Shown one piece after another: positions 9,318 through 56,381 of a stretch of DNA of 64,000 nucleotides. The translations under genes and the position numbers were made by a program. Source of the DNA: Methanosarcinales archaeon Met12 (GTDB lineage: Archaea; Halobacteriota; UBA148; JAJOKI01); the NCBI GenBank assembly GCA_002813105.2, contig CP017966.2, forward strand, positions 790,745-854,744, in the 5' to 3' direction. Under the pieces are notes generated by a model that was not told the DNA's origin, did no database searches, and saw only the letters and a program-made list of their open reading frames with translations. Position 1 is the first letter of the stretch. Each line of letters begins with the position of its first letter.

Positions 9318-9495
9318 GGATTATATCAAACAGGGATTTTTTCTTTCTATCCTTAGGTGCTTGCCAGAGCCCCCTTATCTCTCCTCTTTCCCCTGTTTCC
9401 GTGGTTCTTTGTCTGAGCGCATAGTACTTACCAGTTACAGGGTTGTATATCCTCTTTTTTAAGCTCCTCTTTTTGTTTTTCGCCATAAACAACAC
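9307..9495 (-). CDS. small basic protein, possible partner of the PIN-like gene
   Basis: About 60 aa, K/R-rich. Overlaps the start of the downstream PIN-like gene. No motif recognised. Confidence 0.35.
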   Translation of the reverse strand: MLFMAKNKKRSLKKRIYNPVTGKYYALRQRTTETGERGEIRGLWQAPKDRKKKSLFDIILGN

Positions 9496-9610
9496 CCCCT
9501 ATTGCATGATTTATACTTCGTAAGTTTAAAACATTTACTAAACTTCATATCTCTTGCGATTTATCTCTCATCTTATCATAGCTTTGCTATATGCCCTTCA
9601 ATCTTTCCTT

Positions 9611-20303: not shown

Positions 20304-20549
20304 ATGATGATTGTAATAAAATCGAAGGTTGGTTCAAGGGGCCAGATCGTGATACCAAAGATAGCAAGGGACAATCTCGGCATGATCGAGGGTTCAGGGA
20401 TTATTATTGAGCTGGCAGATGATGGGATACAAATCAAATCGGCAGAAAAAGACATATTGTCGAAGTGGAGCAGGATTGCAGAAGAAGAGGGCATGGATGT
20501 AAAAAAAGAGATAAAATACGGGGATAGGTTGTATGAAGAGATATTCTGA
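20304..20549 (+). CDS. vapB: AbrB/SpoVT-type antitoxin VapB
   Basis: KVGSRGQIVIPKIARDNLGMIEGSGIII. Confidence 0.8.
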   Translation: MMIVIKSKVGSRGQIVIPKIARDNLGMIEGSGIIIELADDGIQIKSAEKDILSKWSRIAEEEGMDVKKEIKYGDRLYEEIF

Positions 20550-20970
20550 AACAGTATACCTTGATGCAAACTTCTTCATTTTCTCGTTGCTCGATAAAAC
20601 GGAAGTTGGCGAAGATGCAAGGATGATATATCAAAAGATGGTCGAAGGAAAACTAAATACTGCTACATCGTCTCTGACATTTGACGAAATGATGTGGGCA
20701 CTGGTCAAAGCAAATAAGAGGCATCTAATAAAGGATGCCGTGAATGACATCTACAAAACTCGGAATTTGATAATATTACCTGTCTCAATCTCTATCCCAT
20801 TAAATGCAATTGAACTGATATTAAAAGGTCTAAATCCAAGGGACGCTTTTCATGTAAGCTGTATGATGGAAAACAAGATAACAACGATTATTTCAGACGA
20901 TCGAGATTTCAAGGCGATCGAGGATATCAAGTGCTTCAATTTCAAGGATTTTCTTTTGGAGATAGCGTAA
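20533..20970 (+). CDS. vapC: PIN-domain toxin VapC
   Basis: VYLDANFFIFSLLD and ISDDRDF motifs. Overlaps vapB. Confidence 0.85.
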   Translation: MKRYSETVYLDANFFIFSLLDKTEVGEDARMIYQKMVEGKLNTATSSLTFDEMMWALVKANKRHLIKDAVNDIYKTRNLIILPVSISIPLNAIELILKGLNPRDAFHVSCMMENKITTIISDDRDFKAIEDIKCFNFKDFLLEIA

Positions 20971-21064: not shown

Positions 21065-21628
21065 TTAGGGATTTGTATATCGCTCGAGTTCATGCAGGAT
21101 GCCGAGTAGGACTAAGAGATTTGGGTCGTCACGTGAGAATAGTTTTTTCAATACTTTCTCTGCCCCCTCGCTGGTTACAATGCTCTTTTTGATGTCCCAG
21201 ATCGGAGATCTGGGAGAGTTGTAGTCCCGAAGGGACTTCAACAATCCCCATAGTGGCAGGTAGCAAATGGGAACGCATCTGAGCCCGAGTTTTGAGGCAG
21301 TGCTTATCGCGAGCTTATCATCCAATAAAATCTCAGGTAAATCCAGCTGGAGTGCCAATGCAATGGCCGCACACTCCCCCCTCCCCATCTTCCCTCTGCT
21401 GAGAAGTGAACTGAGGTATTTCATGCCTGTCCTGTTCAGCTCTTCTTTCTCGATGAAACCCTCCTCTATCAGTAGACTTATTCGTTGAACGTGCTTTTTT
21501 GGCCTCCTATGTTCATCGAAAACCTCGGTTGGAACATAGATTTTCGAGTATCTCTTCTTCGCGAGCAGTATCAGGCTCTCGTCTTTAGGTAGATCGATGA
21601 TGATGGATGCGTCGGCGGAGGCTTTCAT
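21065..21628 (-). CDS. COG2405/DUF3368-type PIN-like toxin
   Basis: GRGECAAIALALQLDLPEILLDDKLAISTASKLGLRCV matches the DUF3368 core. Confidence 0.6.
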   Translation of the reverse strand: MKASADASIIIDLPKDESLILLAKKRYSKIYVPTEVFDEHRRPKKHVQRISLLIEEGFIEKEELNRTGMKYLSSLLSRGKMGRGECAAIALALQLDLPEILLDDKLAISTASKLGLRCVPICYLPLWGLLKSLRDYNSPRSPIWDIKKSIVTSEGAEKVLKKLFSRDDPNLLVLLGILHELERYTNP

Positions 21629-21632
21629 CCCC

Positions 21633-21950
21633 TCAGACCTCTGCACCGAGCTCTTCGAGAAGCAGTTTTTTGATGTTCTCAACGTCTATGTCTCTGGGTA
21701 CTTTTTTGCTTTCAATGAAATCGATGAAATCAGGTAGTGATAGCTTTGCGAGTCTCGCCGCTCTCTCGAGAGAGGCTTTTTCTTTTTTATATAACTCCAG
21801 TGCCAGTTCCTTTCTTTTCTCCTCGATTCCTACCTCGAAGACCTCTCTGATGACCGCTGATTTACTCTTCTTCTCTATTCTCCCCAGCTCATCAAGCTCT
21901 GCCACAAAGTTTTTTGAAATCCTAAATCCTACGTATTTGGTTTCTGCCAT
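21633..21950 (-). CDS. UPF0175-family antitoxin
   Basis: LALELYKKEKASLERAARLAKLSLPDFIDFIESKKV is the UPF0175 HTH pattern. Confidence 0.65.
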   Translation of the reverse strand: MAETKYVGFRISKNFVAELDELGRIEKKSKSAVIREVFEVGIEEKRKELALELYKKEKASLERAARLAKLSLPDFIDFIESKKVPRDIDVENIKKLLLEELGAEV

Positions 21951-22008
21951 TTGACCACGTGAAAACATTGTTGTCACATAATTTAAAGTTGTCGCTGAAA
22001 AGTTTGTC

Positions 22009-22036
22009 AAAAATAAAAAAATTAGGGAAGAAGGGA
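22009..22036. repeat. right direct repeat, part of the surface-protein gene terminator
   Basis: AAAAATAAAAAAATTAGGGAAGAAGGGA. On the minus strand it forms the AGAAGGGA GCAA TCCCTTCT hairpin followed by an oligo-T tract after stop 22065. Confidence 0.7.
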
Positions 22037-22064: not shown

Positions 22065-23303
22065 TTACTCTTCTTTGCGTCTCAGCACCAGATATGCTAC
22101 CGCAAGCAGTCCGAGGATTGCGAATATCGCTCCGAATCCTGGAACTGGTACTGGTGTGGGTGTTGGCGTAGGCGTCGGAGTTGGTGTAGGTGTTGGCACT
22201 GGTGTAGGCGTCGGAGTTGGTGTTGGAGTTGGTGTAGGCGTTGGCACGACCACTACTGCCTCAAGGACGTGTACGGTCGTCCGTTCTGCTGGTGTGCCTA
22301 AGATTTCGACTTCAACCTCCCATGCTCCTATTGCGAAGCCGGTTGTGTTGAACTCTGCAGTCACCCTACCATCTACAACCACTGGGCGTGCCAGTGCGAC
22401 GGCCCCAGCAGGTCCTGTCAGCGTTACGGTTGCCAGTTTACCAGCCATCCTGTTCGTCTCTGCTTCAACGGTCAAGTCTCTGCCCACTGTAACATTTGCA
22501 ATGGGAAGAATCGTCAGGATGTCTCTCTCGACCCTGAACTCCCTGATGGTCAGTATGTCGTCACTGCCTGCAACGGTTGCTCTAGCCCTAATCATGGATG
22601 TAATCTCTGCGATTGTTCTACCAGCGTAGTGACCCCGAGCCGCAGTCAGGTTCGCACCTATTATTACATCTGTTCTTCCATCCCTGCCTGGATGTACCAC
22701 GAACACGGTGTATGTGCCTCTTGTCACTGCTGTTGCGAACGGTCTCTGTTCGTATGTCCAGTCAGCTGCCCTGACGGTGACATTGCCACTGAAGTCTATG
22801 CGTGAAATGTCGTTCCTGACCACTATCATGCCGACCCATGGGGCACCACGTGCTCTACCATCGACCCTCATGTCTACGGTATCGCTCTCAGCTGTGACTG
22901 CCGGTACGTTTACGACTAAATCGCCTTCAACCAGTCGTATCGAAGTGACTGCGTCTGGGGATGGTTTGATGCCTGATACGTCAGTGGCGTATACGTTTAT
23001 CCTGTAGGTGCCTGGCAGTAGTCCGCTAGTGACCCATGTGTGCCTGTAGACATTAGCGGCATCCACTCGCGTGAATACCACTGTCACGTTCTCGCCAGCC
23101 GGGTTTATGACACGGATGGTCGCACCCAAGTTACCCGTCACCGTACCCGTGATGTCCACCCTCTCGCCGATTATGGCGGTCGTCGGTGCGGATACGGTTG
23201 CCAAACCCCTGCCCACGGTGATGACAATCGATGCCTCTCTCATTGGAACGGCGACACGGTCCGTAGCCGTCACGGTGAATGTGCGGTCCATGGCGAACTC
23301 CAT
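22065..23303 (-). CDS. PGF-CTERM surface (S-layer-like) glycoprotein, C-terminal portion
   Basis: Repeated Ig-like beta-rich modules, a PT-rich linker, then PVPGFGAIFAILGLLAVAYLVLRRKEE (PGF-CTERM archaeosortase signal). No signal peptide of its own. Confidence 0.8.
   Translation of the reverse strand: MEFAMDRTFTVTATDRVAVPMREASIVITVGRGLATVSAPTTAIIGERVDITGTVTGNLGATIRVINPAGENVTVVFTRVDAANVYRHTWVTSGLLPGTYRINVYATDVSGIKPSPDAVTSIRLVEGDLVVNVPAVTAESDTVDMRVDGRARGAPWVGMIVVRNDISRIDFSGNVTVRAADWTYEQRPFATAVTRGTYTVFVVHPGRDGRTDVIIGANLTAARGHYAGRTIAEITSMIRARATVAGSDDILTIREFRVERDILTILPIANVTVGRDLTVEAETNRMAGKLATVTLTGPAGAVALARPVVVDGRVTAEFNTTGFAIGAWEVEVEILGTPAERTTVHVLEAVVVVPTPTPTPTPTPTPTPVPTPTPTPTPTPTPTPVPVPGFGAIFAILGLLAVAYLVLRRKEE
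22144..22250. repeat. low-complexity coding repeat (Pro-Thr linker)
   Basis: GGTGT(A/T)GG-type hexamer reiteration encoding PTPTPTPTPTPTPVPTPTPTPTPTPTPTPVPV. Confidence 0.85.
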
Positions 23304-24671: not shown

Positions 24672-24698
24672 CTGATGTCATCGCCTTATCTCTGGAAT
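24672..24698. repeat. left direct repeat flanking the hicAB cassette
   Basis: CTGATGTCATCGCCTTATCTCTGGAAT, 25/27 identical to 25297-25323. Confidence 0.75.
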
Positions 24699-24728
24699 GT
24701 TTTGTGGTGGTGGCGAAAATTTATGTAT

Positions 24729-24752
24729 GTTGAACCACATAGGGATTACAAC
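24729..24752. repeat. degenerate solo H2 hairpin of the composite palindromic element family
   Basis: GTTGAACCACATAGGGATTACAAC compared with GTTGAAATCCCATAGGGATTACAAC at 40006-40030. Confidence 0.55.
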
Positions 24753-24809
24753 TATCACCGAACCCCAGAGATAATGGTCTCAAGAACGGTTCGAGTATGG
24801 ATAAAGACG

Positions 24810-25016
24810 ATGAAATTTAAAGTAATTGTAAGTGAAGGGGAAGACGGATGGTACGTTGTTGAATGCCCTGCCTTGCCTGGATGTGTTTCTCAAGGAAAAA
24901 CTATAGAGGATGCCTTAGAAAATATTAAAGATGCCATCCAGGGTTGTTTAGAAGTTCTAAATCAAAGAGCAAGAGCATTCAGTGTCCATGATAAAGTGGT
25001 AGAGGTAGTTGTTTAA
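24810..25016 (+). CDS. hicB: HicB-family antitoxin
   Basis: MKFKVIVSEGEDGWYVVECPALPGCVSQGKTIEDALENIKDAI (UPF0150/HicB fold). Confidence 0.8.
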   Translation: MKFKVIVSEGEDGWYVVECPALPGCVSQGKTIEDALENIKDAIQGCLEVLNQRARAFSVHDKVVEVVV

Positions 25017-26204: not shown

Positions 26205-26612
26205 TTAGCATACTTCCTCAGGCGACTTTACCTCGATTTCCGTTATTCTTTTAAACTCTTCATCCCTTGTAACTAGGGCACATCTCCGAACTTTGCATGT
26301 GGAGACGATAATCGCATCTGGAAGTCTCACCTTATATTTGGCTCTGATCGTCGATGCTTCTTTCGCGATGGATATATCCACATCGATGATTGTGAAGTTG
26401 TTAATGCTCATTATGTCTATGAGAAACTTTTCCCCTTTTTCAATCTCCCTGCTCGATTGGAACCCGCTTAAGATTTCCGCTATACATATCACAGAAGTGA
26501 AGCCAACATGTTTTCCTTTATGAATGTTTTCGAGTACCATCTTCGCTGCGTGATAATTTTCTTCTTCGTTTAGAATGCTCAGGAAGATGTTGGTGTCTAC
26601 AAACAACCTCAT
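26205..26612 (-). CDS. vapC: PIN-domain toxin VapC
   Basis: MRLFVDTNIFLSIL and VTRDEEF motifs. Confidence 0.85.
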   Translation of the reverse strand: MRLFVDTNIFLSILNEEENYHAAKMVLENIHKGKHVGFTSVICIAEILSGFQSSREIEKGEKFLIDIMSINNFTIIDVDISIAKEASTIRAKYKVRLPDAIIVSTCKVRRCALVTRDEEFKRITEIEVKSPEEVC

Positions 26613-26632
26613 ACAGTTACTTCTCTCGTTCT

Positions 26633-26863
26633 TCACCTCTCCCACTCATCCCGTATCCGCATCTGGTAATTCATGCTCTTTCCAAATATGCCCTTTCCCA
26701 GCCCAACGAGGTCTGCTATTGGCTGACTTGGGGATTTTTTCAGCACGATTTTTTCACCTTCAACTTCGAACATCACTTTTCCTCCTGTCTTGATGTCCAG
26801 TAGTCTCCTCATCCGCTGGGGGATGGTGACTTGTCCCTTTTTTGTGATTTTACTACACTCCAT
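26633..26863 (-). CDS. vapB: AbrB/SpoVT-type antitoxin VapB
   Basis: KKGQVTIPQRMRRLLDIKTGGKVMFEV. Confidence 0.8.
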   Translation of the reverse strand: MECSKITKKGQVTIPQRMRRLLDIKTGGKVMFEVEGEKIVLKKSPSQPIADLVGLGKGIFGKSMNYQMRIRDEWER

Positions 26864-33911: not shown

Positions 33912-33937
33912 TGTAGCCCTCTTATTATTTTGTGTAT

Positions 33938-34088
33938 GTCGCAGATGGAACATGTCACAGTTCGGAGAACTGTGAGAGTTGTATTTCCTTCGGAAATTCA
34001 ACACCGACTAACTCAGAAGAGTTAGACGGACTCACAGATCTTCGATCTGTGACCTCTGCGAGAGTTGTAACCCTGAAAGGGTTTCAAC
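33938..34088. repeat. nest of composite palindromic elements (H1, H2 and X hairpins)
   Basis: Partial H1 (GTCGCAGATGGAACAT), then a full 49-nt H1-H2 unit at 33954-34002, X hairpin at 34004-34029, H1 at 34032-34052, an orphan half-H1, and H2 at 34064-34088. Confidence 0.75.
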
Positions 34089-34090
34089 AT

Positions 34091-35035
34091 TTATATAAAC
34101 CTTATTGATGCTCCAGTGTTTCTTGCACGTACGGTCATGACGTCGCCTCCAATACTAGTTTTCAGATGCTCCTTTACGGCATCCTGAAGTCCAGAGGGTT
34201 GATCGGCAATTCCATACACGAGTGGGCCAAAGGAACTCATCCCAGCGCCTGCTGCGCCGTTCTGAAGCATCACGTCCATTATTTCCCTGGCAATCGGCTG
34301 GAGCTCGATTTCCCTTCGCTTAAAGCCGATATCTTGGATTCGATTAATCGCGGACCCGAAGGTCGTCAAATCCTCCTCAAATAGGGCAGGCAGCAATTCC
34401 ATGAGTATCACATGCGAGACGGCTTGTACCTCCCTTATGGGAATCGGACATTCTCTTTGAAATATGTCGACCTCCCTCACACCAGACGCTCCCTGCAGAT
34501 TTGGAATGGCCAGCACGATATCCCAGTCTGGAAAATCGTGCCTTATCAGCACTGGAGGTGGTGAAGCATGACTAACTGCTGATGGCTTAAATCCTTTCTC
34601 CTCGAATTTGTGCCCGCCATCGAGGATAAATCCTCCCTGCTCGAATGCAGCAACGCCTATGCCAGATGTGCCGCCCCTCTTGACAATCTTCGCCAGCTCA
34701 TAGACGGACAATCCGAGGTCGTATAACATATTTACAGCCATTCCCGCAGCGAGAGATGCCTGGGTGCCGGAGCCCAGACCCACGTGTGAGAGTATATCCT
34801 CCTCGATGGTGATATGTGCACCCCTGTCTCCACCTGCTATCATTTCAGCGCTCCTCCTCACGCGTTCGCACAGGGCGCTGTCGCCCTCTACTGTCACTCC
34901 GTCGGCTTTTTCTGCAGAGAGGATGAGAGATGGCTGGTCTAATGTGATGCCAATGCCGCCGTCCACCCTTCCCAGCGCCCCGTTTAAGTCGATCAGCGTG
35001 ATATGTATCCTCGATGGCGTCCTGATCTTGATCAT
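34091..35035 (-). CDS. beta-ribofuranosylaminobenzene 5'-phosphate (RFAP) synthase, GHMP-kinase fold
   Basis: MIKIRTPSRIHITLIDLNG and the HVGLGSGTQ motif, as in the methanopterin-pathway RFAP synthase. Confidence 0.8.
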   Translation of the reverse strand: MIKIRTPSRIHITLIDLNGALGRVDGGIGITLDQPSLILSAEKADGVTVEGDSALCERVRRSAEMIAGGDRGAHITIEEDILSHVGLGSGTQASLAAGMAVNMLYDLGLSVYELAKIVKRGGTSGIGVAAFEQGGFILDGGHKFEEKGFKPSAVSHASPPPVLIRHDFPDWDIVLAIPNLQGASGVREVDIFQRECPIPIREVQAVSHVILMELLPALFEEDLTTFGSAINRIQDIGFKRREIELQPIAREIMDVMLQNGAAGAGMSSFGPLVYGIADQPSGLQDAVKEHLKTSIGGDVMTVRARNTGASIRFI

Positions 35036-35065
35036 CGTTTTAATCGTTCCACCACTCTTCTGTCT

Positions 35066-35114
35066 GTCGCAGTTCGGAGAACTGCGAGAGTTGTAATTCC
35101 TTTGGAATTTCAAC
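35066..35114. repeat. 49-nt H1-H2 composite palindromic element
   Basis: GTCGCAGTTCGGAGAACTGCGAGAGTTGTAATTCCTTTGGAATTTCAAC, in the 5' region of the RFAP synthase gene. Confidence 0.75.
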
Positions 35115-35176
35115 ATCAACGAATTTTTCAACAGTCATATCAGTAGCCCTGAACCAAAATACAAAAAACCATGTCA

Positions 35177-35398
35177 CTAACTCGATGCTTCTTGTAGTAC
35201 ATCCGCTAGATATTCTCTTCGTTTGCTGGAGACATATGATGTGATCCTTTGAATGAACGTGGCGGTCTTAGTATCAAAATACTTCTCGCCGCACTGCGTA
35301 CACACCTCTGCAGGCATCTCTCTTACGGAAACACCTCTAATCTCAACTTCGACGAGTTTCTTTTCGACTTTGCCGCCACACGAATAGCAGGTCTTCAT
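35177..35398 (-). CDS. YgiT/MqsA-type zinc-ribbon protein (putative antitoxin)
   Basis: CYSCGG...CTQCGEKYF, 73 aa. 4-nt overlap with the upstream DUF4258 gene. Confidence 0.6.
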   Translation of the reverse strand: MKTCYSCGGKVEKKLVEVEIRGVSVREMPAEVCTQCGEKYFDTKTATFIQRITSYVSSKRREYLADVLQEASS

Positions 35399-35700
35399 TT
35401 CACGCTTCTCCTTTGTTTATAGTCATCTTTCCATATATTTAAGTCTGGCCTATAAACTATTATGATAATCAATGCATCCTCATGGGGCGCGCATACTACA
35501 TGTATGGGTGATTTGTGTATCGAGCACAGCAAGAGGCAGCTGGCCCCTCTGGGATCATCTGGATGTTCCTCGATAACATCAAAATCTTGTTTCAGGGCTT
35601 GCTCTAGTTCTTCAGCAGTGATATTTTCAAGGGACTCTTTTTCAACCGCATGTAACGTGTGTCGTATGTTGTTAAGGCGTGATATTATTTCATCTCGCAT
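35395..35700 (-). CDS. DUF4258-like toxin
   Basis: C-terminal [22 protein letters not shown] pattern. ATG 35700 is preferred because the longer ORF would overlap ileS by 145 nt. Confidence 0.6.
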
Positions 35701-38700
35701 TTCCCAATCCCAAACTCCATCTCGATGTTTTCTATGGTCCATTTCTTTACCAAATCGCCTTTTATCGTGATATCTATGCCCATATTCAGACTCTCTGCCC
35801 TGACCTCGCCTGAGATGAAATCTCTCCATGCACTCATTAAACCAACCACTCGCCCATCCTGGATTCTCATGGACACGTCTATTTTGTCCATCATATCGAG
35901 GTTCAGCTCGCGTCGCATGTCCTGAATGCGTCTGATGACCTCTCTGGCATACCCCTCTGCAATGAGTTCATCGGTCAACTCGACATCCACGTATATGCGC
36001 CCGCCAGAGAACTCTGCCACGCTGATGTGTTCGGGAACGCTCTCCTCAAATCCAACCATCTCCTCGGTGATGAGGACCTCACCGTCAGGTAGTTTGAGTT
36101 CGTATCCCCTAGCAATTTTCCTTTTTACTACCCTGCCATCGATCTTTTTGAGCGCATCGATGACCTTGCCAGCCCTTCCCTTGAACTCCGGTCCGATGCG
36201 ATTGGGGTTCGGAACGACCTTGAGTCCGAGCTCCTCCCACTCCTCTCCCGCCTCGAGTACGATGAGCTCCTTTGTATTTGCCTGCTCCTTGATAACGCTT
36301 TCAAGTGATTTGACCGCCTTGTTCACGGCGTCGTTATCTGGCGCTATCACGATTACCTTCACAGGCCACCTCAGCTTCCGCTTGGCCTTCTGGCGCGCAT
36401 TCGAGGCGGCTTCAACCACCCTCCGTGCGACATCCATATGCGCTTCAAGAGTTTTATTTATCGACTTTTTGTCTGCGACCGTCCAGTCGCACATATGCAC
36501 GGTAGGCAGCCGCATTGCGACATCGCCTTCATGACTCACGTTCTGGTAGATGTCCTCTGCAATGAACGGCGTAAAGGGCGCCATCAGCTTGACAATGGTA
36601 TCCGTCACAGCCCATATCGTGCGATATGCCGCGAACTTGTCTGGGTCATCTTCCTCTATCCACATCCTCGGGCGTATCAATCTGATGTACCAGCGCGACA
36701 AATCCTCCACTATGAAATTCTGGAGCGCTCTGGTCGCTCGGTGCAGCTCATACCTGGCCATCGCATCCTCTACTTCTAAAATCAGCGAATTAACCTTTGA
36801 TAGGACCCATTTATCCTCAATCCTGAGATGTGATTTCACGGATTCCGACGACACAGCAGAGGGGTCGAAATTGTCAAGCGCCATATAGGGAAGCGGAAAG
36901 CGATACACGTTCCATAGAATGTTCAACATGCGATGCGCATTCTGGACATCCTCTATGATAAATCGAAGGTCTTCCCACGGCGCGTTTGATGAAAGGACAT
37001 AAAAGCGCAGCGTATCCGCGCCGTACCTGTTGATGACATCCTCTGGCGTCACCACATTCCCCATACTTTTGGACATCTTCCTGCCGAGGTCGTCCAGCGT
37101 GAAGCCGTGCATTAACACGCTCTTGTAGGGCGCCCGGCCAAACGCTATCATGGATGCGCCAAGCTGCGAATAGAACCACCCTCTCGTCTGGTCATGTCCC
37201 TCGGTGATGAAGTCCGCAGGCCACCATGTATCGAACGCCCCTGATTTGTGCGGGAAGTCCAGCCCAGCCCATGAAGCAATCGCTGAATCGAACCAGACGT
37301 CGAAAACGTCCTCCACTCTGCGCATATCCTCGGTGCATTTTGGACATTTTAAACGGATTTTATCCAGGTCTGGTCGATGCAGTTCCATATCGTCAGGAAG
37401 GTCGCCTGCCCTTTTCTCGAGCTCATCACGCGTTCCGATCACGTCCATGCTACCGCACTCGCATATCCATATCGGCAGCGGGATGCCCCAGTATCTCTGG
37501 CGCGATATGCACCAATCTCTGGCGCCCTCTATCCAGTCCTTAAACCTGGCAGAGCCTGCCCATCTTGGATGCCATTCGACCTTCTCGATTTCCTTCAGCA
37601 TCGAATCCTTCAACTCCGAGACCTTGAGGAACCACTGCTCCGTCGCCAGATAGATAATGGGAGTTTTACAGCGCCAGCAGTGGCCGTATCTGTGCGTAAC
37701 ATTTCCATGCGCCAGCAGCACGCCTTTTTTATCAAGGTCTTCTATGACCTGCGGGTTTGCATCGAAAACATACATGTCCACATACTTGCCTGCATATGCC
37801 GTATAACGTCCATCAGGTCCCACAGGACAAAAGATGGGCAGTTCGTGCTCCGTACCCAATCCAAAGTCGTCCATACCATGTCCTGGAGCGATGTGCACGC
37901 ATCCAGTATTTTCGACGGTCACAAAATCGGCAAGATATACCTTGTGCTCAAAGCCTGCCTGCGCTGGAACGACATCACTTAAAGGATTTTCATACTCAAG
38001 CCCGACCAGGTCCCTGCCACGCATTGTTTCGAGAACCTCGTAATCCTGATAGTGCCCCTCCTTCAGAACGTTCTCGACCAGTTCTGATGCCATGATCAAT
38101 ATCTCGTCCCGGTTTTCGTCCCATGCACGCACCTTTGAATACTTAAAATCCGAATGCACCGCAACCGCTATGTTGGAAGGGATTGTCCACGGAGTTGTCG
38201 TCCAGATTACGATGTGGGTGTCGTCCTCTCCGACAAGTCGAAACTCCTTTGGAGTTTCAGACAGTCGGGAAATCTTCGATTTCCGACTTACTGGAAATTT
38301 GACATAAATCGAGGGGTCGGTTCGATCCCAGTACTCGACCTCGGAATCCGCGATAGCGGTTTCACACCGCGAACACCAGTTGACAACCCTTTTGCCCCCC
38401 TCGAGCAGTCCCTTTTTGTGTGCCTGTTTTATCGTCCACCAGGCAGCTTCGATGTAACCGTCATCAATCGTCATGTAGGGGTCATCCCAGTCAAGCCATG
38501 CGCCGAGTCGCTTAAACTGCGCTGTCATCTGTTCCTTATTCTGGAGGGCAAAGCGCTTGCACTCATCGATAAATCGATCGGAACCATATGCTTCGATATC
38601 CTTTTTCGTCTTGAAACCGAGATGCTCCTCCACTTTGACCTCGATGGGGAGGCCGTGCATATCCCATCCTGCTCTGTCCAGGACGTCAAATCCCTTCATC

Positions 38701-38924
38701 GATTTAAAGCGCAATACCACATCCTTGATGATCTTATTCCATGCGGTACCGAGGTGAATGGCTCCCGTCGTATATGGCGGACCATCCACAAAATAAAATC
38801 GCTGGCTGCCCTTCCGATGTTCTCGCGTGCGCTTGTACGCCTCCGCCTCATTCCACTGTCGGATAACCCGTTCTTCTACCTTGTGTGAATCATATTGTCC
38901 TGCCACTTCTTCCTTCACGTCCAT
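35685..38924 (-). CDS. ileS: isoleucine--tRNA ligase
   Basis: 1079 aa. HLGTAW (HIGH), KMSKSMGN (KMSKS), the editing domain and C-terminal zinc knuckles. Confidence 0.95.
38233..38288. repeat. 56-nt double-hairpin element inside the ileS CDS (antisense)
   Basis: ACAAGTCGAAACTCCTTTGGAGTTTCAGACAGTCGGGAAATCTTCGATTTCCGACT, 52/56 identical to 44564-44619. Confidence 0.85.
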
Positions 38925-39058: not shown

Positions 39059-40042
39059 ATTAAAGAAGTAATCTGGACCGAGAAATATCGACCGAGGACC
39101 TTGAAGGATGTTTTAGGGCAGGACGCCATAATCGAGCGCCTGCAATCATATGTTAAATCCGGCAGCCTGCCGCACCTGCTTTTTTCTGGTCCGCCGGGGG
39201 TTGGCAAGACGGCATCGGCAATCGCCATCGCAAGGGAGATGTTCGGAGAGGTGTGGAGAAGCAACTTTACAGAGCTCAATGCCTCGGATGAAAGGGGCAT
39301 CGATGTCGTGCGAAATAAGATAAAGAACTTCGCCAGGACAGCTTCCCTGGGCAAAGCCGCGTTCAAGATAATATTTCTCGACGAAGCGGATGCCCTCACC
39401 CACGATGCACAATCTGCACTGCGCCGAACCATGGAGCGCTACACCAGCACGTGTAGATTCATTCTGAGCTGTAACTATTCGTCTAAAATCATCGAACCGA
39501 TTCAGTCCAGATGTGCTGTATATCGATTCAAGCCGATATCTGACGAGGCCGTTGAGAAGTGCATCAGGCAGATTGCAAAAGAAGAGGGCTTGCAGCTCAT
39601 GGACGACGGAATAGAAGCCATCAAATATGTGACGAGAGGGGATATGCGCAAGGCGATAAATTCGCTGCAGTCCGCTGCAGTTATGGGCAAAAAGATCGAT
39701 GCAGATATGATATACCAGACAACCGCCACGGCATGCCCTGGAGAGATGAACGAATTGATCGAGTTATCTCTGAAAGGCGATTTTATGGGGGCAAGGGATA
39801 AATTGGATGCACTGCTCATAGACCACGGTATGGCTGGCGAAGATGTAATATATCAAGTTCACAGGGCAATAATGGACTTCGGCGACATTTCGGACAATCT
39901 GAGAGTCCAGCTGCTTGACAAAATTGGCGAGATTGACTTCAGGCTAACAGAAGGCGCAAACGAAAGAATACAATTGGAGGCGCTGATAGCCCATTTCATG
40001 CTGGTGTTGAAATCCCATAGGGATTACAACTCTCGCAGATGA
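39059..40042 (+). CDS. rfcS: replication factor C small subunit
   Basis: Walker A GPPGVGKT, FLDEADALT and the SRC motif QSRCAVYRF. The conserved IWTEKYRP is encoded upstream of the first canonical start (TTG 39101), so the true start is unresolved. Confidence 0.9.
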   Translation: MKEVIWTEKYRPRTLKDVLGQDAIIERLQSYVKSGSLPHLLFSGPPGVGKTASAIAIAREMFGEVWRSNFTELNASDERGIDVVRNKIKNFARTASLGKAAFKIIFLDEADALTHDAQSALRRTMERYTSTCRFILSCNYSSKIIEPIQSRCAVYRFKPISDEAVEKCIRQIAKEEGLQLMDDGIEAIKYVTRGDMRKAINSLQSAAVMGKKIDADMIYQTTATACPGEMNELIELSLKGDFMGARDKLDALLIDHGMAGEDVIYQVHRAIMDFGDISDNLRVQLLDKIGEIDFRLTEGANERIQLEALIAHFMLVLKSHRDYNSRR

Positions 40043-40054
40043 AACATCTGCGAC
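40006..40054. repeat. 49-nt H2-H1 composite palindromic element overlapping the rfcS 3' end
   Basis: GTTGAAATCCCATAGGGATTACAACTCTCGCAGATGAAACATCTGCGAC. It encodes the last 12 codons and the stop of rfcS. Confidence 0.8.
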
Positions 40055-40114
40055 ACTGGGAAGAAGTAGGTTTCTTTGTTTTACATACTACGCCGTGAGA
40101 TATTCTGTGCCTGA

Positions 40115-40209
40115 TTTTATCAAAACTTTGAGTACAAAGTTTTTATCAAAACTTTGAGTACAAAGTTTTTATCAAAACTTTGAGTACAAAGTTTTTATCA
40201 AAACTTTGA
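40115..40209. repeat. 26-nt tandem repeat, 3 full copies plus a partial one
   Basis: TTTTATCAAAACTTTGAGTACAAAGT x3 plus a 17-nt partial. Each unit contains the ACTTTG AGTA CAAAGT hairpin. The last copies form the 3' end of the DUF2283 gene. Confidence 0.9.
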
Positions 40210-41225: not shown

Positions 41226-41281
41226 GCAACACCGACTAACTTAGAAGAGTTAGACGGACTCACAGATGTTTCATCTGTGAC
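41226..41281. repeat. X hairpin plus H1 hairpin unit
   Basis: GCAAC A CCGACTAACTTAGAAGAGTTAGACGG AC TCACAGATGTTTCATCTGTGA C, in the divergent spacer upstream of rps8e. Confidence 0.7.
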
Positions 41282-41359
41282 ACCAACTATCCGAAAGATA
41301 CAAATAACATTCTGTGTTTATTATGTGGAATATGGAATGTAGAATATGGAGGTTCAGCG

Positions 41360-44480: not shown

Positions 44481-45554
44481 GTGTATGATATGGAAGAGAT
44501 AAAGGCAGCCGAGGAAGTCGAAAAGAAGATTAGAGTAATCAAAGATAGCCCTGTAGAGTCTCAACAAGTCGAAACTCCAACAGAGTTTCAGACAGTCGGG
44601 AAATCTTCGATTTCCGACTCACGCGAGGAACGGAGAGAGTATGAAGAGGCTAAAATGCAGTGCTCGGAATGTAACAGCTCCCAACTCGTGCACGATTACG
44701 AGAGAGCAGAACTTGTATGCAGCGAGTGCGGACTTGTACTTGAAGAGGATTGTATCGATATGGGGCCCGAGTGGCGGGCCTTCGATCATGACCAGCGAAT
44801 GAAGCGTTCCAGAGTGGGGGCGCCAATGACGTATACGATTCACGACAAGGGTTTGAGCACGATGATCGACTGGCGGAACAGAGATTCATGTGGCAAGTCA
44901 GTATCATCGAAAAACAGGGCACAGTTATATCGGCTGAGAAAATGGCAGCGCAGAATCAGGGTGAACAATGCGACCGAACGAAATCTCGCATTTGCGTTAT
45001 CGGAGTTGGACCGAATGGCATCAGCACTGGGTATGCCAAGAAACATCAGAGAGTCTGCCGCGATTATCTACCGTAAAGCGGTGGAGAAAAATTTAATCAG
45101 GGGGCGCAGCATCGAGGGAGTTGCTGCAGCCGCATTGTATTCCTCGTGCCGGATGAGTTCCGTGCCAAGAACGCTGGACGAGATCGCAGAGGTGTCGAGG
45201 GTGAGCAGAAAGGAGATAGGGCGAACGTATCGATTCGTATCCAGAGAGCTTAAACTCAAACTCATGCCGACGTCTCCAATTGACTATGTATCGCGATTTA
45301 CCTCTGGATTAAATCTCAAAGGTGAGGTGCAGTCCAAGGCAGTTGAAATCTTGCGCCATGCTGCAGAGAGGGAGCTGACGTCAGGGAGAGGTCCCACGGG
45401 GGTCGCAGCAGCCGCGATATATATCGCATCCATTCTTTGCGGAGAACGCAAAACGCAGAGAGAAGTGGCAGATGTGGCAGGCGTGACTGAAGTAACCATC
45501 AGAAACAGGTATAAGGAGTTGGCAGAGGAGCTCGACATAGATATAGTCCTTTAA
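44481..45554 (+). CDS. tfb: transcription initiation factor TFB
   Basis: Zinc ribbon [24 protein letters not shown], the B-finger and two cyclin folds. There is a 60-residue N-terminal extension that contains the 56-nt element. Confidence 0.92.
44564..44619. repeat. 56-nt double-hairpin element inside the tfb CDS (sense)
   Basis: ACAAGTCGAAACTCCAACAGAGTTTCAGACAGTCGGGAAATCTTCGATTTCCGACT. Confidence 0.85.
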
Positions 45555-45632
45555 ACAAAGATTGCTTATGCAATCTTTTAAACAAAGATTGCTTATGCAA
45601 TCCTTTAAACGGTCATTCTCAAAGAGAATGAC
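45547..45632. terminator. three tandem hairpins in the tfb/membrane-gene convergent spacer
   Basis: TCYTTTAAAC + AAAGATTGC TTAT GCAATCTTT occurs twice as a 27-nt tandem duplication, followed by GGTCATTCTC AAA GAGAATGACC. Confidence 0.6.
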
Positions 45633-46229
45633 CTAAACAAGGAGCATTATAACGTCGATAAAATACGCTATGGCAAAACATCCCACCAGCGCACCTATGG
45701 TAATTGCAATGAACACCTTATACGGGTCCATACCTATTATGCGTCCAATAATTGACGCCATAACCGCTCCAGTTCCCTGAAATGGTATAATCACAAGAAT
45801 GACGATACCTGTAAAGGCAAATCGCCTCATCCGGGAGTGTTCTTCTAAAAGTATCCCACCCCTCCTCTCCATATTTGCAATGGTCTCTCCGAGTACTGGA
45901 ACCCTCTTGAGATGGTCAAAGTTCCATACGAGAAATAGTGCGGTTACGATATCGATGAACGCAATGGAAGATGCAGCGAGAGCAGGGTGAACGTCAGCAA
46001 CAACAGCGATGGGAATCACGGATTCTTTTCCAGCCGGCGGGATAACATAAGCAGTCATCATGACGATTACCTTGGCAAAGATGCCCTCATCCAACGTTAG
46101 ATACATAATGAAGATTACTCCAGCTGCAATGTGAAAGGGAAGGACAAATTTAATTAATGCTGACATACTCCCTCTAAGGATATGGTCTTGTACCCTCTTC
46201 AATTTCAAAAGTAGGTCCATTTGATTCAT
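45633..46229 (-). CDS. small membrane protein (putative small multidrug-export family, COG2426-like)
   Basis: 198 aa, 4-5 TM, IPPAGKESVIPIAV motif. Confidence 0.5.
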   Translation of the reverse strand: MNQMDLLLKLKRVQDHILRGSMSALIKFVLPFHIAAGVIFIMYLTLDEGIFAKVIVMMTAYVIPPAGKESVIPIAVVADVHPALAASSIAFIDIVTALFLVWNFDHLKRVPVLGETIANMERRGGILLEEHSRMRRFAFTGIVILVIIPFQGTGAVMASIIGRIIGMDPYKVFIAITIGALVGCFAIAYFIDVIMLLV

Positions 46230-46243
46230 GAGATTATCGCCAT

Positions 46244-46651
46244 TTAACCAAGCTTATAGGTCACGGTCTCGGTATATGTCGTCTCGCCGTCTGAAAATAT
46301 TATTTGTACCGTCGCTGTTCTCGCACCAGAGTCATATCTCCCGTGCACGAATATAACCGAATATCCCTCCGATGCATATACCCCGATTATTTGGTTTTCA
46401 TGGGCGGTTAGGTTAGTTAGTTGTGGGATGACGAACGGATTTTTTGTACCAGCACGTGAGACATCCCTCAAGATGGTTCCGTATGTGTCTTTCATGCGTT
46501 TAAAATCAAAGTTTACATCGCAGGTTTCCTGTTCTATGGTCCGATGACCTGCAAATGCAGCTGTATGAAGAACTATGCTGAAGGAGATGATGCCTACTGC
46601 CAAAATGAAGCCCGCAAGTAGAATAATTTGTCCCTGCTCATCTTTCATCAT
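46244..46651 (-). CDS. archaeal type IV pilin-like protein
   Basis: MMKDEQGQIILLAGFILAVGIISFSIVL is a class III signal-peptide-like N-terminus. Confidence 0.55.
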   Translation of the reverse strand: MMKDEQGQIILLAGFILAVGIISFSIVLHTAAFAGHRTIEQETCDVNFDFKRMKDTYGTILRDVSRAGTKNPFVIPQLTNLTAHENQIIGVYASEGYSVIFVHGRYDSGARTATVQIIFSDGETTYTETVTYKLG

Positions 46652-46794
46652 TTGTACCAATTTATAGTAAACTGTCACAAGTTAAAAAGGGTTGTGTTTC
46701 CATATCTCCTGCAATGGCACTTCTTGCTGATTATTTTGTCATCAATGGTAAGCCTTAAATAACTTTAGTCTTAAGTAATATACTGTGAGTAAGA

Positions 46795-47052
46795 ATGACT
46801 ACTACTATGGTAAGTTCTAAAGGGCAGATAGTGATACCCAAGTGCATTAGGGAGAAGCTGTCATTGGAGAAGGGATCAGAGGTTGAGATAATAGAGAGAG
46901 ATGGTGTAATCAAGATCATCAGGATTCCAGAAGACCCCTTGGAGGCATTAGCTGGATGCCTGAATCTCGGGGCATCGACGAAAGAGCTGATGCGGGAATT
47001 GGATGAAGAGGAAAAAAGAAGAGATGAGCGACTCATGGGGCTCAAAGCATGA
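46795..47052 (+). CDS. vapB: AbrB/SpoVT-type antitoxin VapB
   Basis: SSKGQIVIPKCIREKLSLEKGSEVEII. Confidence 0.8.
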   Translation: MTTTMVSSKGQIVIPKCIREKLSLEKGSEVEIIERDGVIKIIRIPEDPLEALAGCLNLGASTKELMRELDEEEKRRDERLMGLKA

Positions 47053-47429
47053 AACACTGCTTGGATTCGTATGCGATCATCAGTCTGATTCAGGGTGGAG
47101 ATGGCGCAGACAAGGTGAAGAGGATAATATCCGGGGATGGGCAGAAGGTCATGAGTACGGTGAACGCAGCAGAGGTCTATAACATTATATTGAGGCGGAG
47201 GGGAGAGGAGCACGCGGACGAGAAGTTCACGTGGTTTACAAAACTAAACATAGAATTCATGCCACCAGATGTTGAGATTGCAAGAGAAGCAGGCAGGTTC
47301 AAGATGAAATATTCTTTTGCCCTTGGAGATGCCTTCTGCCTTGCCACTGCTGTCTCAGCAGAATGTAAAATCGTGACAGGTGATTCAGAGTTTGGTGATG
47401 TCAGCGAAGTCGAAATTGTGTGGGTTTGA
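47049..47429 (+). CDS. vapC: PIN-domain toxin VapC
   Basis: CLDSYAIISLI and VTGDSEF motifs. 4-nt overlap with vapB. Confidence 0.85.
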   Translation: MKHCLDSYAIISLIQGGDGADKVKRIISGDGQKVMSTVNAAEVYNIILRRRGEEHADEKFTWFTKLNIEFMPPDVEIAREAGRFKMKYSFALGDAFCLATAVSAECKIVTGDSEFGDVSEVEIVWV

Positions 47430-47436
47430 CGATGTT

Positions 47437-48681
47437 TTACTTATACCACAACACCAATCTCGCCATATAAACCTCGGCCGTTACAAATACAGGCACGGTC
47501 ACTGTAATCGCTCCCGGGGCAGGAATTCCATTGATGATTCTCATCTGAACGATTTCTCCTGTGCTGTTGGAGAAATGCAGGTTATACTCGACATTCTCCG
47601 GGATATAACTGCGAAGAATGTTGTTCAGCTTGGTGAGGTTGATGAATCCCCTGAGTGCCGCCTCGAGCGGGCTAAGTTCTGCACCTGGCGCCAGACCTGG
47701 TCTGCCGACACAGACGAATATTGGGTGTGAATGAATATTGGGCCCCCTCCTTGGATCGGAATCTATTGCCCATATTGCATATCCACCCCTTGCTCCATCG
47801 TGAAACTTGAATTCAAGTGTGTTGTTACCGATAAGTTTTATGGTAACTACTCTATCCACCGTAGTAGGTCTATCCCTTGTTGGTATATCCCTTGTTGTAT
47901 AGATGTCTCTCCCCCTTATACCCAACGCATCCCATCTGTCAGGCCTCACTCTCTCCCTCAACATCGTCTCTATGGTGCCACCCCTACCAATCACTACGTA
48001 CTGCAACAGCTCCTGTTCTCCGGTAAGCTTTGGCTTGGTGATATTGAACGAACCATCTCTCCCTTCTGGTTTTTTATCTACCCAGACCAAGACAGGAGTG
48101 GAAACTCCTCCCCTACCATCCTCAAACCAGACCATGTTTATGGTATAATTGGTTATACCTACTCTATGTCTGAAAGTGAAGATATTGTTTGGGCTATCCC
48201 TCACAGCACCGCCATCAACACCAAAATATTCAACGACGGAAAGGCGGCCGCCGATAATATCAGCGGGATTTTTCCATCTGTTATCTCTCGTATCCCATAA
48301 TTTGAACCTCGTAGTAAGATTTTCTCCTGCCCTGTCATGATTGATATATAAATACCTGGTCGTCCAATTCTTGCCATCTGCTGTTCTTATATCTGTTACG
48401 TTCACATCGTGCGCCCACTTACCGGGCGGCGGCCTGGGGCTATGCTCTCTATACAACCTATACTCAAGCAAGCCCACAACTATATCTGCATCCCTGTATG
48501 ATAAGAGCGTGAGCACGTCCCTGCCATAGTGTTTCAACTGGACTTCGGCGAAATCCTGCCTCGGTGTGATATCTACTGGAGTAGTGGCCATCACTATGTA
48601 GAGGGCGGCGATCATCATGCTGACGGCAAGCACTGCCTCTATCGTGTACATCTGACCCGCATCATCTCTTCGAATGCTCAT
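47437..48681 (-). CDS. large type IV pilin-like protein
   Basis: MSIRRDDAGQMYTIEAVLAVSMMIAALYIV is a pilin-type N-terminus. ATG 48681 sits 1 nt after the upstream stop. Confidence 0.6.
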   Translation of the reverse strand: MSIRRDDAGQMYTIEAVLAVSMMIAALYIVMATTPVDITPRQDFAEVQLKHYGRDVLTLLSYRDADIVVGLLEYRLYREHSPRPPPGKWAHDVNVTDIRTADGKNWTTRYLYINHDRAGENLTTRFKLWDTRDNRWKNPADIIGGRLSVVEYFGVDGGAVRDSPNNIFTFRHRVGITNYTINMVWFEDGRGGVSTPVLVWVDKKPEGRDGSFNITKPKLTGEQELLQYVVIGRGGTIETMLRERVRPDRWDALGIRGRDIYTTRDIPTRDRPTTVDRVVTIKLIGNNTLEFKFHDGARGGYAIWAIDSDPRRGPNIHSHPIFVCVGRPGLAPGAELSPLEAALRGFINLTKLNNILRSYIPENVEYNLHFSNSTGEIVQMRIINGIPAPGAITVTVPVFVTAEVYMARLVLWYK

Positions 48682-55964: not shown

Positions 55965-56381
55965 TTAATGGTATTTCTCAATACATTTTGATGCACTTAT
56001 CTTCTCTAATCCTTCTACGTTATCAAAATCTTTATCTTCACTTACTATAGTAGATAAGCCTGTCTCTTTCATCGAAGAAAAATGGATAGCATCCCTTGGT
56101 TCAAGTGTTGTTTTTTCATAGATTTCTACCATTCTAATAATAACTGATTTATCAAGCTCAATCCATTTTATGGGCAATGTAAGTATAGCTTTTGTAATCT
56201 TGATAGCGTTATCTTTTCCAACGTTCTTTTTCAAAATCCACATCACTTCATCTATTACGAGAAATGACGATGCACAGGTAATCCTTTGTTTGTTTATGAG
56301 TCTTATAATCTCCCTACAATTTCGTCCCAATTTCTCTTTGTCTATCGCAGCAAAAATGAAAATATTGGAATCAATATACAA
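55965..56381 (-). CDS. vapC: PIN-domain toxin VapC
   Basis: MYIDSNIFIFAAID and VSEDKDF motifs. Confidence 0.85.
   Translation of the reverse strand: MYIDSNIFIFAAIDKEKLGRNCREIIRLINKQRITCASSFLVIDEVMWILKKNVGKDNAIKITKAILTLPIKWIELDKSVIIRMVEIYEKTTLEPRDAIHFSSMKETGLSTIVSEDKDFDNVEGLEKISASKCIEKYH

Follow-up and report, generated by a model that had tools for sequence, protein, structure and literature searches.

Very small hairpin-forming repeats, apparently mobile, lie in frame in the genes for isoleucyl-tRNA synthetase and transcription factor B of a Methanosarcinales archaeon

In Methanosarcinales archaeon Met12, two unrelated essential genes, ileS (isoleucyl-tRNA synthetase, IleRS) and tfb (transcription factor B, TFB), share a near-identical hairpin-forming segment that leaves both reading frames open. 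What is this segment, and how could it have come to lie in both genes? We analysed the 64,000-nucleotide (nt) stretch of contig CP017966.2 (positions 790,745 to 854,744) that carries them, called here the window, in whose own coordinates positions are given. An earlier reading of the bare letters (the sequence-only reading) had proposed a small palindromic element, mobile and tolerant of translation. Our analysis supports that proposal, with mobility judged from presence or absence at orthologous sites: the two segments very probably represent a single sub-type within a family of hairpin-forming repeats, very small, non-autonomous and apparently mobile. The two host genes and their segments are as follows.

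35685 to 38924, minus strand: ileS, isoleucyl-tRNA synthetase, host gene of the first 54-nt copy.
38235 to 38288, plus strand (antisense to ileS): 54-nt double-hairpin unit AAGTCG...CCGACT, in frame in ileS; site empty in the sister-species contig L001 (below); 57 bits in the covariance model described below, as one of its training sequences.
44481 to 45554, plus strand: tfb, transcription factor B, with its start at GTG 44481 or ATG 44490; host gene of the second copy.
44566 to 44619, plus strand: second 54-nt unit, read sense and in frame within the TFB N-terminal linker, with 52/56 identity to its counterpart in ileS; 53.9 bits, likewise as a training sequence.

The sequences at 38233-38288 and 44564-44619 are exactly those quoted in the sequence-only reading, and its description of them was accurate: the 52/56 identity, the exact 37-nt block common to both copies (GAGTTTC through CCGACT), the open frames (antisense in ileS, sense in tfb) and the four differences, which are consecutive and lie at the apex of hairpin 1 (TTTG in the ileS copy, AACA in the tfb copy). 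A repeat finder run on the window extends the shared stretch to 59 nt (38233-38291 versus 44564-44622, 92% identity). The two copies hold the only window occurrences of a 31-mer taken from the exact block, which was found 0 times in 100 dinucleotide shuffles with up to three mismatches allowed. Comparison with the empty site gives a best-fit unit of 54 nt, AAGTCG...CCGACT (38235-38288 in ileS, 44566-44619 in tfb), with a boundary precision of about one base, since the aligner sets the ileS gap one base to the right (38236-38289). Its two ends are inverted repeats of each other, imperfect and about 12 nt long (AAGTCGAAAC / GATTTCCGACTT), with no parent insertion sequence (IS) for comparison.

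Each copy folds, as had been predicted, into two adjacent stem-loops with about 11 pairs and one bulge per stem. The minimum free energies as DNA are -16.2 kcal/mol for the ileS copy and -15.0 kcal/mol for the tfb copy, against about -5 for shuffles (z = -6.2 and -6.4, respectively), and 0/200 shuffles were as stable. A separate observation concerns the apex of hairpin 1 (38240-38258 and 44571-44589): the tfb apex, CCAACAG, shows four differences from the ileS apex read forward, CCTTTGG, and only two from its reverse complement, CCAAAGG. One of the copies may thus carry a flipped hairpin 1, a hint of hairpin- or cruciform-mediated inversion, or of copying from the opposite strand.

The ileS segment adds 18 amino acids between KFPV and VGEDD, and does so in the window IleRS only. 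None of 24 aligned orthologues, 87% to 60% identical, carries it, including one that is 87% identical, which agrees with the proposal that it is a lineage-specific insertion. At the DNA level, the empty site is supplied by L001, a 10.9-kb syntenic contig from Logan SRR6347718 whose IleRS is 87% identical to that of the window; the alignment shows a clean 54-nt gap. In an AlphaFold model of IleRS built with 45 sequences, the insert forms a coil (211-233) between strands 194-210 and 234-240, with a pLDDT below 50 at residues 217-226 and of 85-90 in the adjoining 10-residue blocks. A loop position, about which the sequence-only reading had asked, is borne out in the predicted structure. Because alignments to solved IleRS structures break off at the insert, and isolated Thermus thermophilus editing-domain constructs start just upstream of it, we place the insert at the CP1 editing-domain entry, some 10 residues ahead of the WTTTPWT motif. 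An exact look-up of the window IleRS and TFB proteins returned no identical record for either.

Group orthologues of TFB have a charged N-terminal extension of 35-45 residues ahead of the Zn ribbon, and the window TFB N-terminus upstream of the element (MEEIK..EVEKK) is homologous to their N-termini (MEEIEKVKEVEKA). The element lies between this block and the Zn ribbon, in a charged linker of variable length, and its segment is present in 0/35 aligned orthologues. The stop codon of Gar1 is 3 nt from the TFB start both in the window and in a syntenic relative (L019). Because the N-terminus is homologous and the Gar1/TFB adjacency conserved, we conclude, on these sequence comparisons, that the upstream tfb start is real and that the element lies inside the coding sequence. 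A search of other samples for an empty tfb allele found none: every recovered place that reaches the tfb site carries the element, and all seven places recovered belong to the same population (99.8-100% identity).

The region after tfb has features of its own. Two 27-nt tandem units, TCCTTTAAACAAAGATTGCTTATGCAA, each a 9-bp hairpin, directly follow the tfb stop (45547-45633) and are succeeded by a 10-bp perfect hairpin, GGTCATTCTC-aaa-GAGAATGACC; none of these is related in sequence to the repeat family described below. Further on, 45631-48249 is 96.4% identical, with 30 gaps, to positions 1-2637 of contig L030 of the BBPG assembly, the rest being 99.6-100% identical. This segment of L030 includes a Sm_multidrug_ex gene and a PIN/MazE toxin-antitoxin pair, and the region appears to be strain-variable.

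Do the two segments form an element class of their own, as the sequence-only reading had it for the 56-mer? The repeat is real, but it does not stand alone: it belongs, as a 54-nt sub-type, to a wider hairpin-module family that has at least eight sites in about 75 kb, where units of 24, 51 and 54 nt occur singly, in tandem or nested in loops (copy counts and the coding share refer to the window and the available contigs, not to the whole genome). We distinguish module X, TC[ACG]CAG[AT]T-loop-A[AT]CTG[CGT]GA; module Y, GAGTTGTA-N5-loop-N5-TTCAACA, with a conserved mismatch; and module Z, CCGACTAACTnAGAAGAGTTAGACGG. They are found as 24-nt singles or as doublets of 51-54 nt (X-Y, Z-X and the ileS/tfb variant). 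X-Y is a fixed 51-nt unit, TGTC...TTCAACA, whose termini correspond only as TGT...ACA, and Z-X is likewise 51 nt long. The ileS/tfb unit aligns with the reverse of X-Y; its hairpin 1 has the upper stem GAAACTCC/GGAGTT in common with the Y module of contig L018, and its hairpin 2 has the apex ATCTTCGAT in common with X. Among five Y modules the flanks are invariant and the apex stems differ. The remaining window sites are these.

33937 to 34090, plus strand: hairpin array of 153-154 nt between the GHMP-kinase stop and the L10e start; orthologous L001 site empty.
35065 to 35115, plus strand: 51-nt X-Y unit (TGTCGCAG...TTCAACA) upstream of the GHMP-kinase gene; 76.4 bits in the covariance model.
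40005 to 40055, minus strand: 51-nt X-Y unit in the 3' end of the RFC small-subunit gene; 69.9 bits.
41229 to 41288, plus strand: Z-X unit between the divergent DUF2240 and S8e genes, an insertion of about 60 nt; L001 site empty; fold z = -6.4.
21193 to 21243, plus strand: 51-nt X-Y unit, unannotated or intergenic; 74.2 bits; the overlapping open reading frame (ORF) is without Pfam match.
24729 to 24775, plus strand: probable decayed unit relic upstream of a HicB-like gene, with the left hairpin arm eroded; weak covariance-model match (10 bits, E = 2.6).

Further sites come from additional contigs of this organism: downstream of ilvC, at the 3' end of an aIF1/SUI1 gene and in three other places. 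Most copies are intergenic or at gene ends. The Z-X unit at 41229-41288 is 93% identical to the Z-X unit of the 33.9-kb array. Six of the seven window sites fall inside 10.7 kb (rough scan-statistic chance, about 0.005), a clustering that hints at local hopping or a regional preference. An orientation rule relative to transcription was considered and rejected, as the copies are mixed: read from the ORF maps, four or five point one way and two or three the other.

The hairpins of the family are conserved as structures. In an alignment of nine doublets, 94.7% of the cells are paired, compared with 81.8% in shuffles, and registers slid by 1-3 columns give at most 46%. Compensatory changes are present, 8 of the 19 stem pairs being changed on both sides, and z ranges from -4.7 to -7.1 for the individual folds. 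With a covariance model based on the nine doublets, copies in the examined loci score 42-76 bits, most of these being training sequences, the ileS and tfb copies among them, that match by construction; outside the training set are L013 729-787 (43.8 bits) and window 34030-34088 (41.8 bits). The model found no additional copy in the window and none in about 5 kb past its left end, and past the right end it matches only the array downstream of ilvC. In a relative that is 67% identical, no family member was found in 31 kb scanned with the model, nor in 21 kb of syntenic sequence.

Two side observations were made next to these sites. Just downstream of the RFC gene and its hairpin element, 40115-40209 holds a tandem 26-nt unit, TTTTATCAAAACTTTGAGTACAAAG, reported by the repeat finder as three overlapping 43-nt copies spaced 26 nt apart; an inverted repeat, CAAAACTTTG/CAAAGTTTTT, lies in each unit. 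Three units (78 nt) are missing there from the BBPF and BBPG assemblies, through copy-number variation or assembly collapse, and the array could be one of protein-binding sites. At 34089-34097 a TATA-box-like TTTATATAA, conserved in L001, overlaps the GHMP-kinase stop; the window has the 153-nt array between this box and the L10e start codon. If the box is the L10e promoter, the L10e mRNA would have a leader with five or six hairpins.

At orthologous sites, close relatives differ in the presence or absence of copies. L001 cleanly lacks the ileS, 33.9-kb and 41.2-kb elements in the 10.9 kb that it has in common with the window; the 35.06-kb and 40.0-kb elements are missing too, at sites with flanks so diverged that no empty site is readable. 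L001 in turn carries, at 9473-9496, a single 24-nt X hairpin in frame in cofE (F420-0:gamma-glutamyl ligase), where it adds NSQIFDLR; the hairpin is missing from the window cofE and from A. fulgidus CofE (PDB 2PHN). That the insertions were ancestral and lost in L001 is contradicted by the outgroups for ileS and cofE.

At gene ends, copies have altered the encoded C-termini. The RFC element was inserted four codons before the ancestral stop and now encodes the tail VLKSHRDYNSRR and the stop codon, so that the window protein ends in AHFMLVLKSHRDYNSRR, where relatives end in ...AHFMLAGKK or ...AHFMLAGSKNI; the old 3' end, CTGGGAAGAAGTAG, is still recognisable after the element, without target duplication. 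The SUI1 (aIF1) ORF likewise ends within an element. Filled and empty sites compared in pairs revealed no target-site duplication at the ileS, cofE, RFC and 41.2-kb events, and at most one ambiguous nucleotide of possible duplication at the 33.9-kb array. In this array, the X loop of a 51-nt X-Y unit holds, after GGAACA, two nested units of 51 nt each, an X-Y and a Z-X. Deleting the inner 102 nt leaves a canonical 51-nt X-Y that folds at -16.9 kcal/mol. In the L013 array only a Z-X is nested, and deletion of 51 nt from the X loop again leaves a canonical X-Y. Many module junctions follow AACA. As a target consensus, AACA is no more than a lead: the 41.2-kb empty site in L001 is without it, so that AACA may belong to the element.

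A difference of another kind was seen between ileS and the GHMP-kinase gene (35335-35680), where window and L001 differ by three indels of 58, 56 and 61 nt, none a multiple of three and none a hairpin module. The region encodes a DUF4258 toxin-like protein and small ORFs, and looks like a toxin-antitoxin cassette decaying or replaced in one lineage.

Could the shared sequence have been produced by the data rather than by the cell? The candidates would be a binning error or an assembly fault (repeat-induced chimerism or a collapsed graph bubble). Short-read contigs do end at the hairpin repeats, as expected of multicopy sequence, and stretches of N interrupt scaffold BBPG01002226.1 (887 in the locus examined), whose matching pieces stop at repeats. 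The same population nevertheless recurs, at 99.6-100% identity, in several Logan assemblies and in BBPD-BBPG, metagenome assemblies of DDBJ. Two independent assemblies have the ileS copy within ungapped matches: it is internal to BBPF01005480.1 at 100% identity (the end of that contig falls inside the tfb copy) and lies within an ungapped match of 4,076 nt at 99.8% in BBPG01002226.1. In the latter, two separate pieces also span the junctions of the tfb copy, both of them, and the left junction recurs in Logan contigs from other runs (DRR093102 and DRR093103), which extend from unique sequence into the tfb copy, up to 44612. Essential genes, moreover, remain in frame with both inserts. We therefore regard an artefact as almost certainly the wrong explanation, and the independent assemblies effectively exclude the chimerism that the sequence-only reading asked to be checked. 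Nor do we think that the 54-nt segments are removed from the RNA, for instance as small archaeal introns of the bulge-helix-bulge type, and thus never translated; this is very unlikely, though slightly less so than an artefact. In archaea, tRNA endonuclease splices some protein-coding mRNAs, and the inverted-repeat ends AAGTCG...CGACTT could pair and so draw the junctions close to each other. The predicted fold, however, consists of two independent hairpins with single-nt bulges and has no 3-nt/4-bp/3-nt bulge-helix-bulge motif. In addition, the ileS, tfb and L001 cofE inserts are all free of stops in the host frame (chance about 0.42 x 0.42 x 0.68 = 0.12, given lengths divisible by three), and the element provides the stop codon and a C-terminal tail at RFC and SUI1.

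More weight is due to the possibility that the modules serve the host as signals in RNA or DNA (to stabilise, process or terminate mRNA, or to bind proteins); selection for such a role would then keep the stems paired, with the coding copies as by-products. Co-varying stems with invariant lower stem and flanks are the pattern of a protein-recognised hairpin, many copies fall precisely on the 3' ends of genes or in leaders (RFC, SUI1, ilvC, the L10e leader), and the cluster within 10.7 kb is among information-processing genes. Yet the orthologous sites in the 87% and 67% relatives are entirely without modules, the orientation to the neighbouring gene is mixed, no T-tract follows the hairpins, and no Rfam family was matched at gathering thresholds. 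A site-specific function also poorly explains insertion into the coding sequences of essential proteins. With the decayed relic at 24.7 kb, a selfish element fits better than host function at every site. On balance we consider host signals unlikely, and prefer apparently mobile repeats.

Is the element adapted to being translated? The sequence-only reading suggested a class of translated elements; open in-frame copies do occur, in ileS, tfb and the sister-species cofE, but nothing indicates adaptation to translation. The 54-nt unit is open in four of six frames (about 2.5 by chance), and its sister units in two to four. The element shows no special stop avoidance, and its in-frame copies are best taken as those insertions that selection let pass. 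Such copies can be tolerated because the unit lengths (24, 51 and 54 nt) are all multiples of three and several frames are without stops. A copy landing in a tolerant part of a protein, such as the loop at the IleRS editing-domain entry or the charged N-terminal linker of TFB, would then leave the gene functional and be translated with it.

As to movement, new copies have arisen without target-site duplication, often beside or inside older copies. The likeliest mode of spread may be mobilisation in trans, with the imperfect hairpins recognised on single-stranded DNA by an enzyme like that of REP/RAYT or the TnpA of IS200/IS605. We propose this tentatively, by analogy, because the lower stems and bulges are conserved and the apexes variable, clear terminal repeats and target duplications are lacking, and insertion tends to occur beside or inside existing copies.

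Several points weigh against the interpretation as mobile, translated repeats and against this mode of spread. No close empty tfb allele was found, the nearest orthologues being about 79-89% identical, so that the tfb boundaries are set by analogy with ileS. Translation of the inserts is argued from open frames and the essentiality of the genes. A 20-mer of the element met only six chance bacterial matches in a genome collection of species representatives, and concatenated unit translations, searched against 5.8 billion sequences, gave 63 candidates, none with E of 10 or less, the peptides being too short for significance. Among 20 ORFs scanned with Pfam, 14 of which lie in the extra contigs (about 110 kb in all), no transposase of any kind was detected; the scans returned toxin-antitoxin genes, SUI1, primase, GINS and similar. 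To our knowledge, no REP/RAYT-type system is known in archaea, nor have RAYT-type enzymes been described there. The array units run head-to-tail rather than alternating, and the conserved 5' GTAG of REPs is absent. Finally, compensatory changes in palindromes can come from hairpin-templated repair without selection. Scans of viral contigs gave one chance match without a hairpin for the element and none for the 54-mer.

How does the family relate to repeats already described? The comparison with the Rickettsia palindromic element (RPE) drawn in the sequence-only reading is apt in function, as the in-frame inserts in ileS, tfb and L001 cofE show. RPEs (Ogata et al. 2000 Science 290:347) are palindromes found between genes and in frame in conserved genes; they are 105-150 bp long, form one long stem-loop and have about half of their copies intragenic, according to PMC2229807 and PMC10969869. 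The likeness lies in in-frame insertion that leaves conserved genes intact, at surface positions thought to be tolerated, and in both being best read as selfish DNA filtered by selection. In contrast to RPE, which is bacterial, with consensus families restricted to Rickettsia and Wolbachia, and presumably unrelated in sequence, the units here are of 24-54 nt, with one or two short hairpins combined into mosaics instead of a single long stem, and most known copies are outside coding sequences.

The sequence-only reading knew of no archaeal equivalent; this does not hold, as the MJRE of Methanocaldococcus jannaschii are a precedent. According to PMC2229807, which cites Suyama, Lathe & Bork 2005, FEBS Lett 579:5281, these are palindromic repeats, some fused into protein genes. 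Like the present family, they are archaeal and mostly extragenic, with a few copies in coding sequences that keep their coding potential; their host is from a different order of archaea. Copies of MJRE1-3 are old and diverged. Those described here are 92-100% alike and polymorphic between sister species, which indicates recent activity, in a comparison for which MJRE are known to us by description only.

In anatomy other systems are closer. The REP/BIME/REPIN repeats of Proteobacteria, which go with RAYT, are imperfect palindromes of 20-40 nt in mosaic clusters (PMC2817692, PMC3116915). As in those, there are several hairpin types, mosaic arrays of two to six modules and a conserved mismatch or bulge, mobilisation in trans through a single-stranded DNA hairpin is proposed, and target duplications and clear terminal inverted repeats are lacking. 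The GT[AG]G head of REPs (listed in PMC2817692) is absent, the units starting with TGTC (X-Y), CCGAC (Z) or AAGTCG (the ileS/tfb unit). Unlike REPs and REPINs, the modules run head-to-tail in all arrays, the copies are not strictly extragenic, the host is archaeal, and no RAYT gene was among the 20 ORFs scanned. The small dispersed repeats (SDR) that Elhai and colleagues are said to have described in 2008 in Nostoc punctiforme are reportedly mobile units of about 21-27 nt, some of them hairpins, with no known enzyme, and are reported to enter one another, other repeats and, now and then, genes. Here, too, a unit of less than 30 nt is polymorphic between relatives (the 24-nt X in L001 cofE) and units are nested in X loops; SDR are, however, cyanobacterial and unrelated in sequence, and the commonest unit here is a fixed 51-nt doublet. 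Classical prokaryotic miniature inverted-repeat transposable elements, or MITEs, have terminal inverted repeats that match a parent IS and target-site duplications (PMC10969869, PMC2229807). They resemble the present repeats in being small, non-autonomous, multicopy and structured, with in-frame fusions possible; they differ in that four events here are without target duplication and the X-Y termini are only TGT...ACA. The family is thus like RPE and the archaeal MJRE in function, and closer to REP/BIME mosaics and cyanobacterial SDR in anatomy. Because it lacks the size and single long stem of RPE, the GTAG head and alternating orientation of REP, and the target duplication of classical MITEs, we file it as a new family of a known phenomenon, outside any named family; from MJRE and RPE it is set apart by description.

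Two further features of the window are unconnected with the repeats. A GT-rich periodic repeat of 6, 12 and 18 nt (22134-22241) lies inside the minus-strand gene 22065-23303, whose product carries a PGF-CTERM archaeal surface-anchor motif, and probably encodes a Thr/Pro-rich linker. Genes of toxin-antitoxin type (PIN/VapC-like, MazE, UPF0175/RHH, HicB-like, DUF4258) are unusually dense in the 64 kb.

2056-2445, 20533-20970, 21633-22010, 24675-25016, 26205-26645, 35395-35829 and 55965-56381: toxin-antitoxin-type loci.

The locus offers a clean, datable archaeal case of selfish hairpin repeats entering essential proteins, with empty sites in a sister species, and the two hosts hit are central ones, IleRS at its editing-domain entry and the general transcription factor TFB. 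The family is unusually recent, with three clean differences favouring the window, one favouring L001 and two window copies at diverged sites, all in about 11 kb of shared sequence. In practice, such repeats fragment short-read assemblies of this organism and produce gene-call artefacts in the form of spurious N- or C-terminal extensions, for example of the RFC, SUI1, L10e and GHMP-kinase ORFs. They are also well suited to studying the movement, in archaea, of 24-54-nt elements that lack target duplications and clear terminal repeats. A bolder reading, which we think rather improbable, is that the 24-54-nt units are true very small archaeal mobile elements copied by a hairpin-specific mechanism new to the domain: perhaps an archaeal housekeeping transposase, RAYT-like or derived from IS200/IS605, or perhaps a process templated by replication or repair. 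Preferred entry 3' of (G/C)AACA, including the loops and ends of the repeats' own copies, would then explain the nested and tandem arrays. If this were true, the repeats, with lengths divisible by three, would be a recurrent source of short peptide insertions in core information-processing proteins: IleRS, TFB, RFC, aIF1 and CofE.

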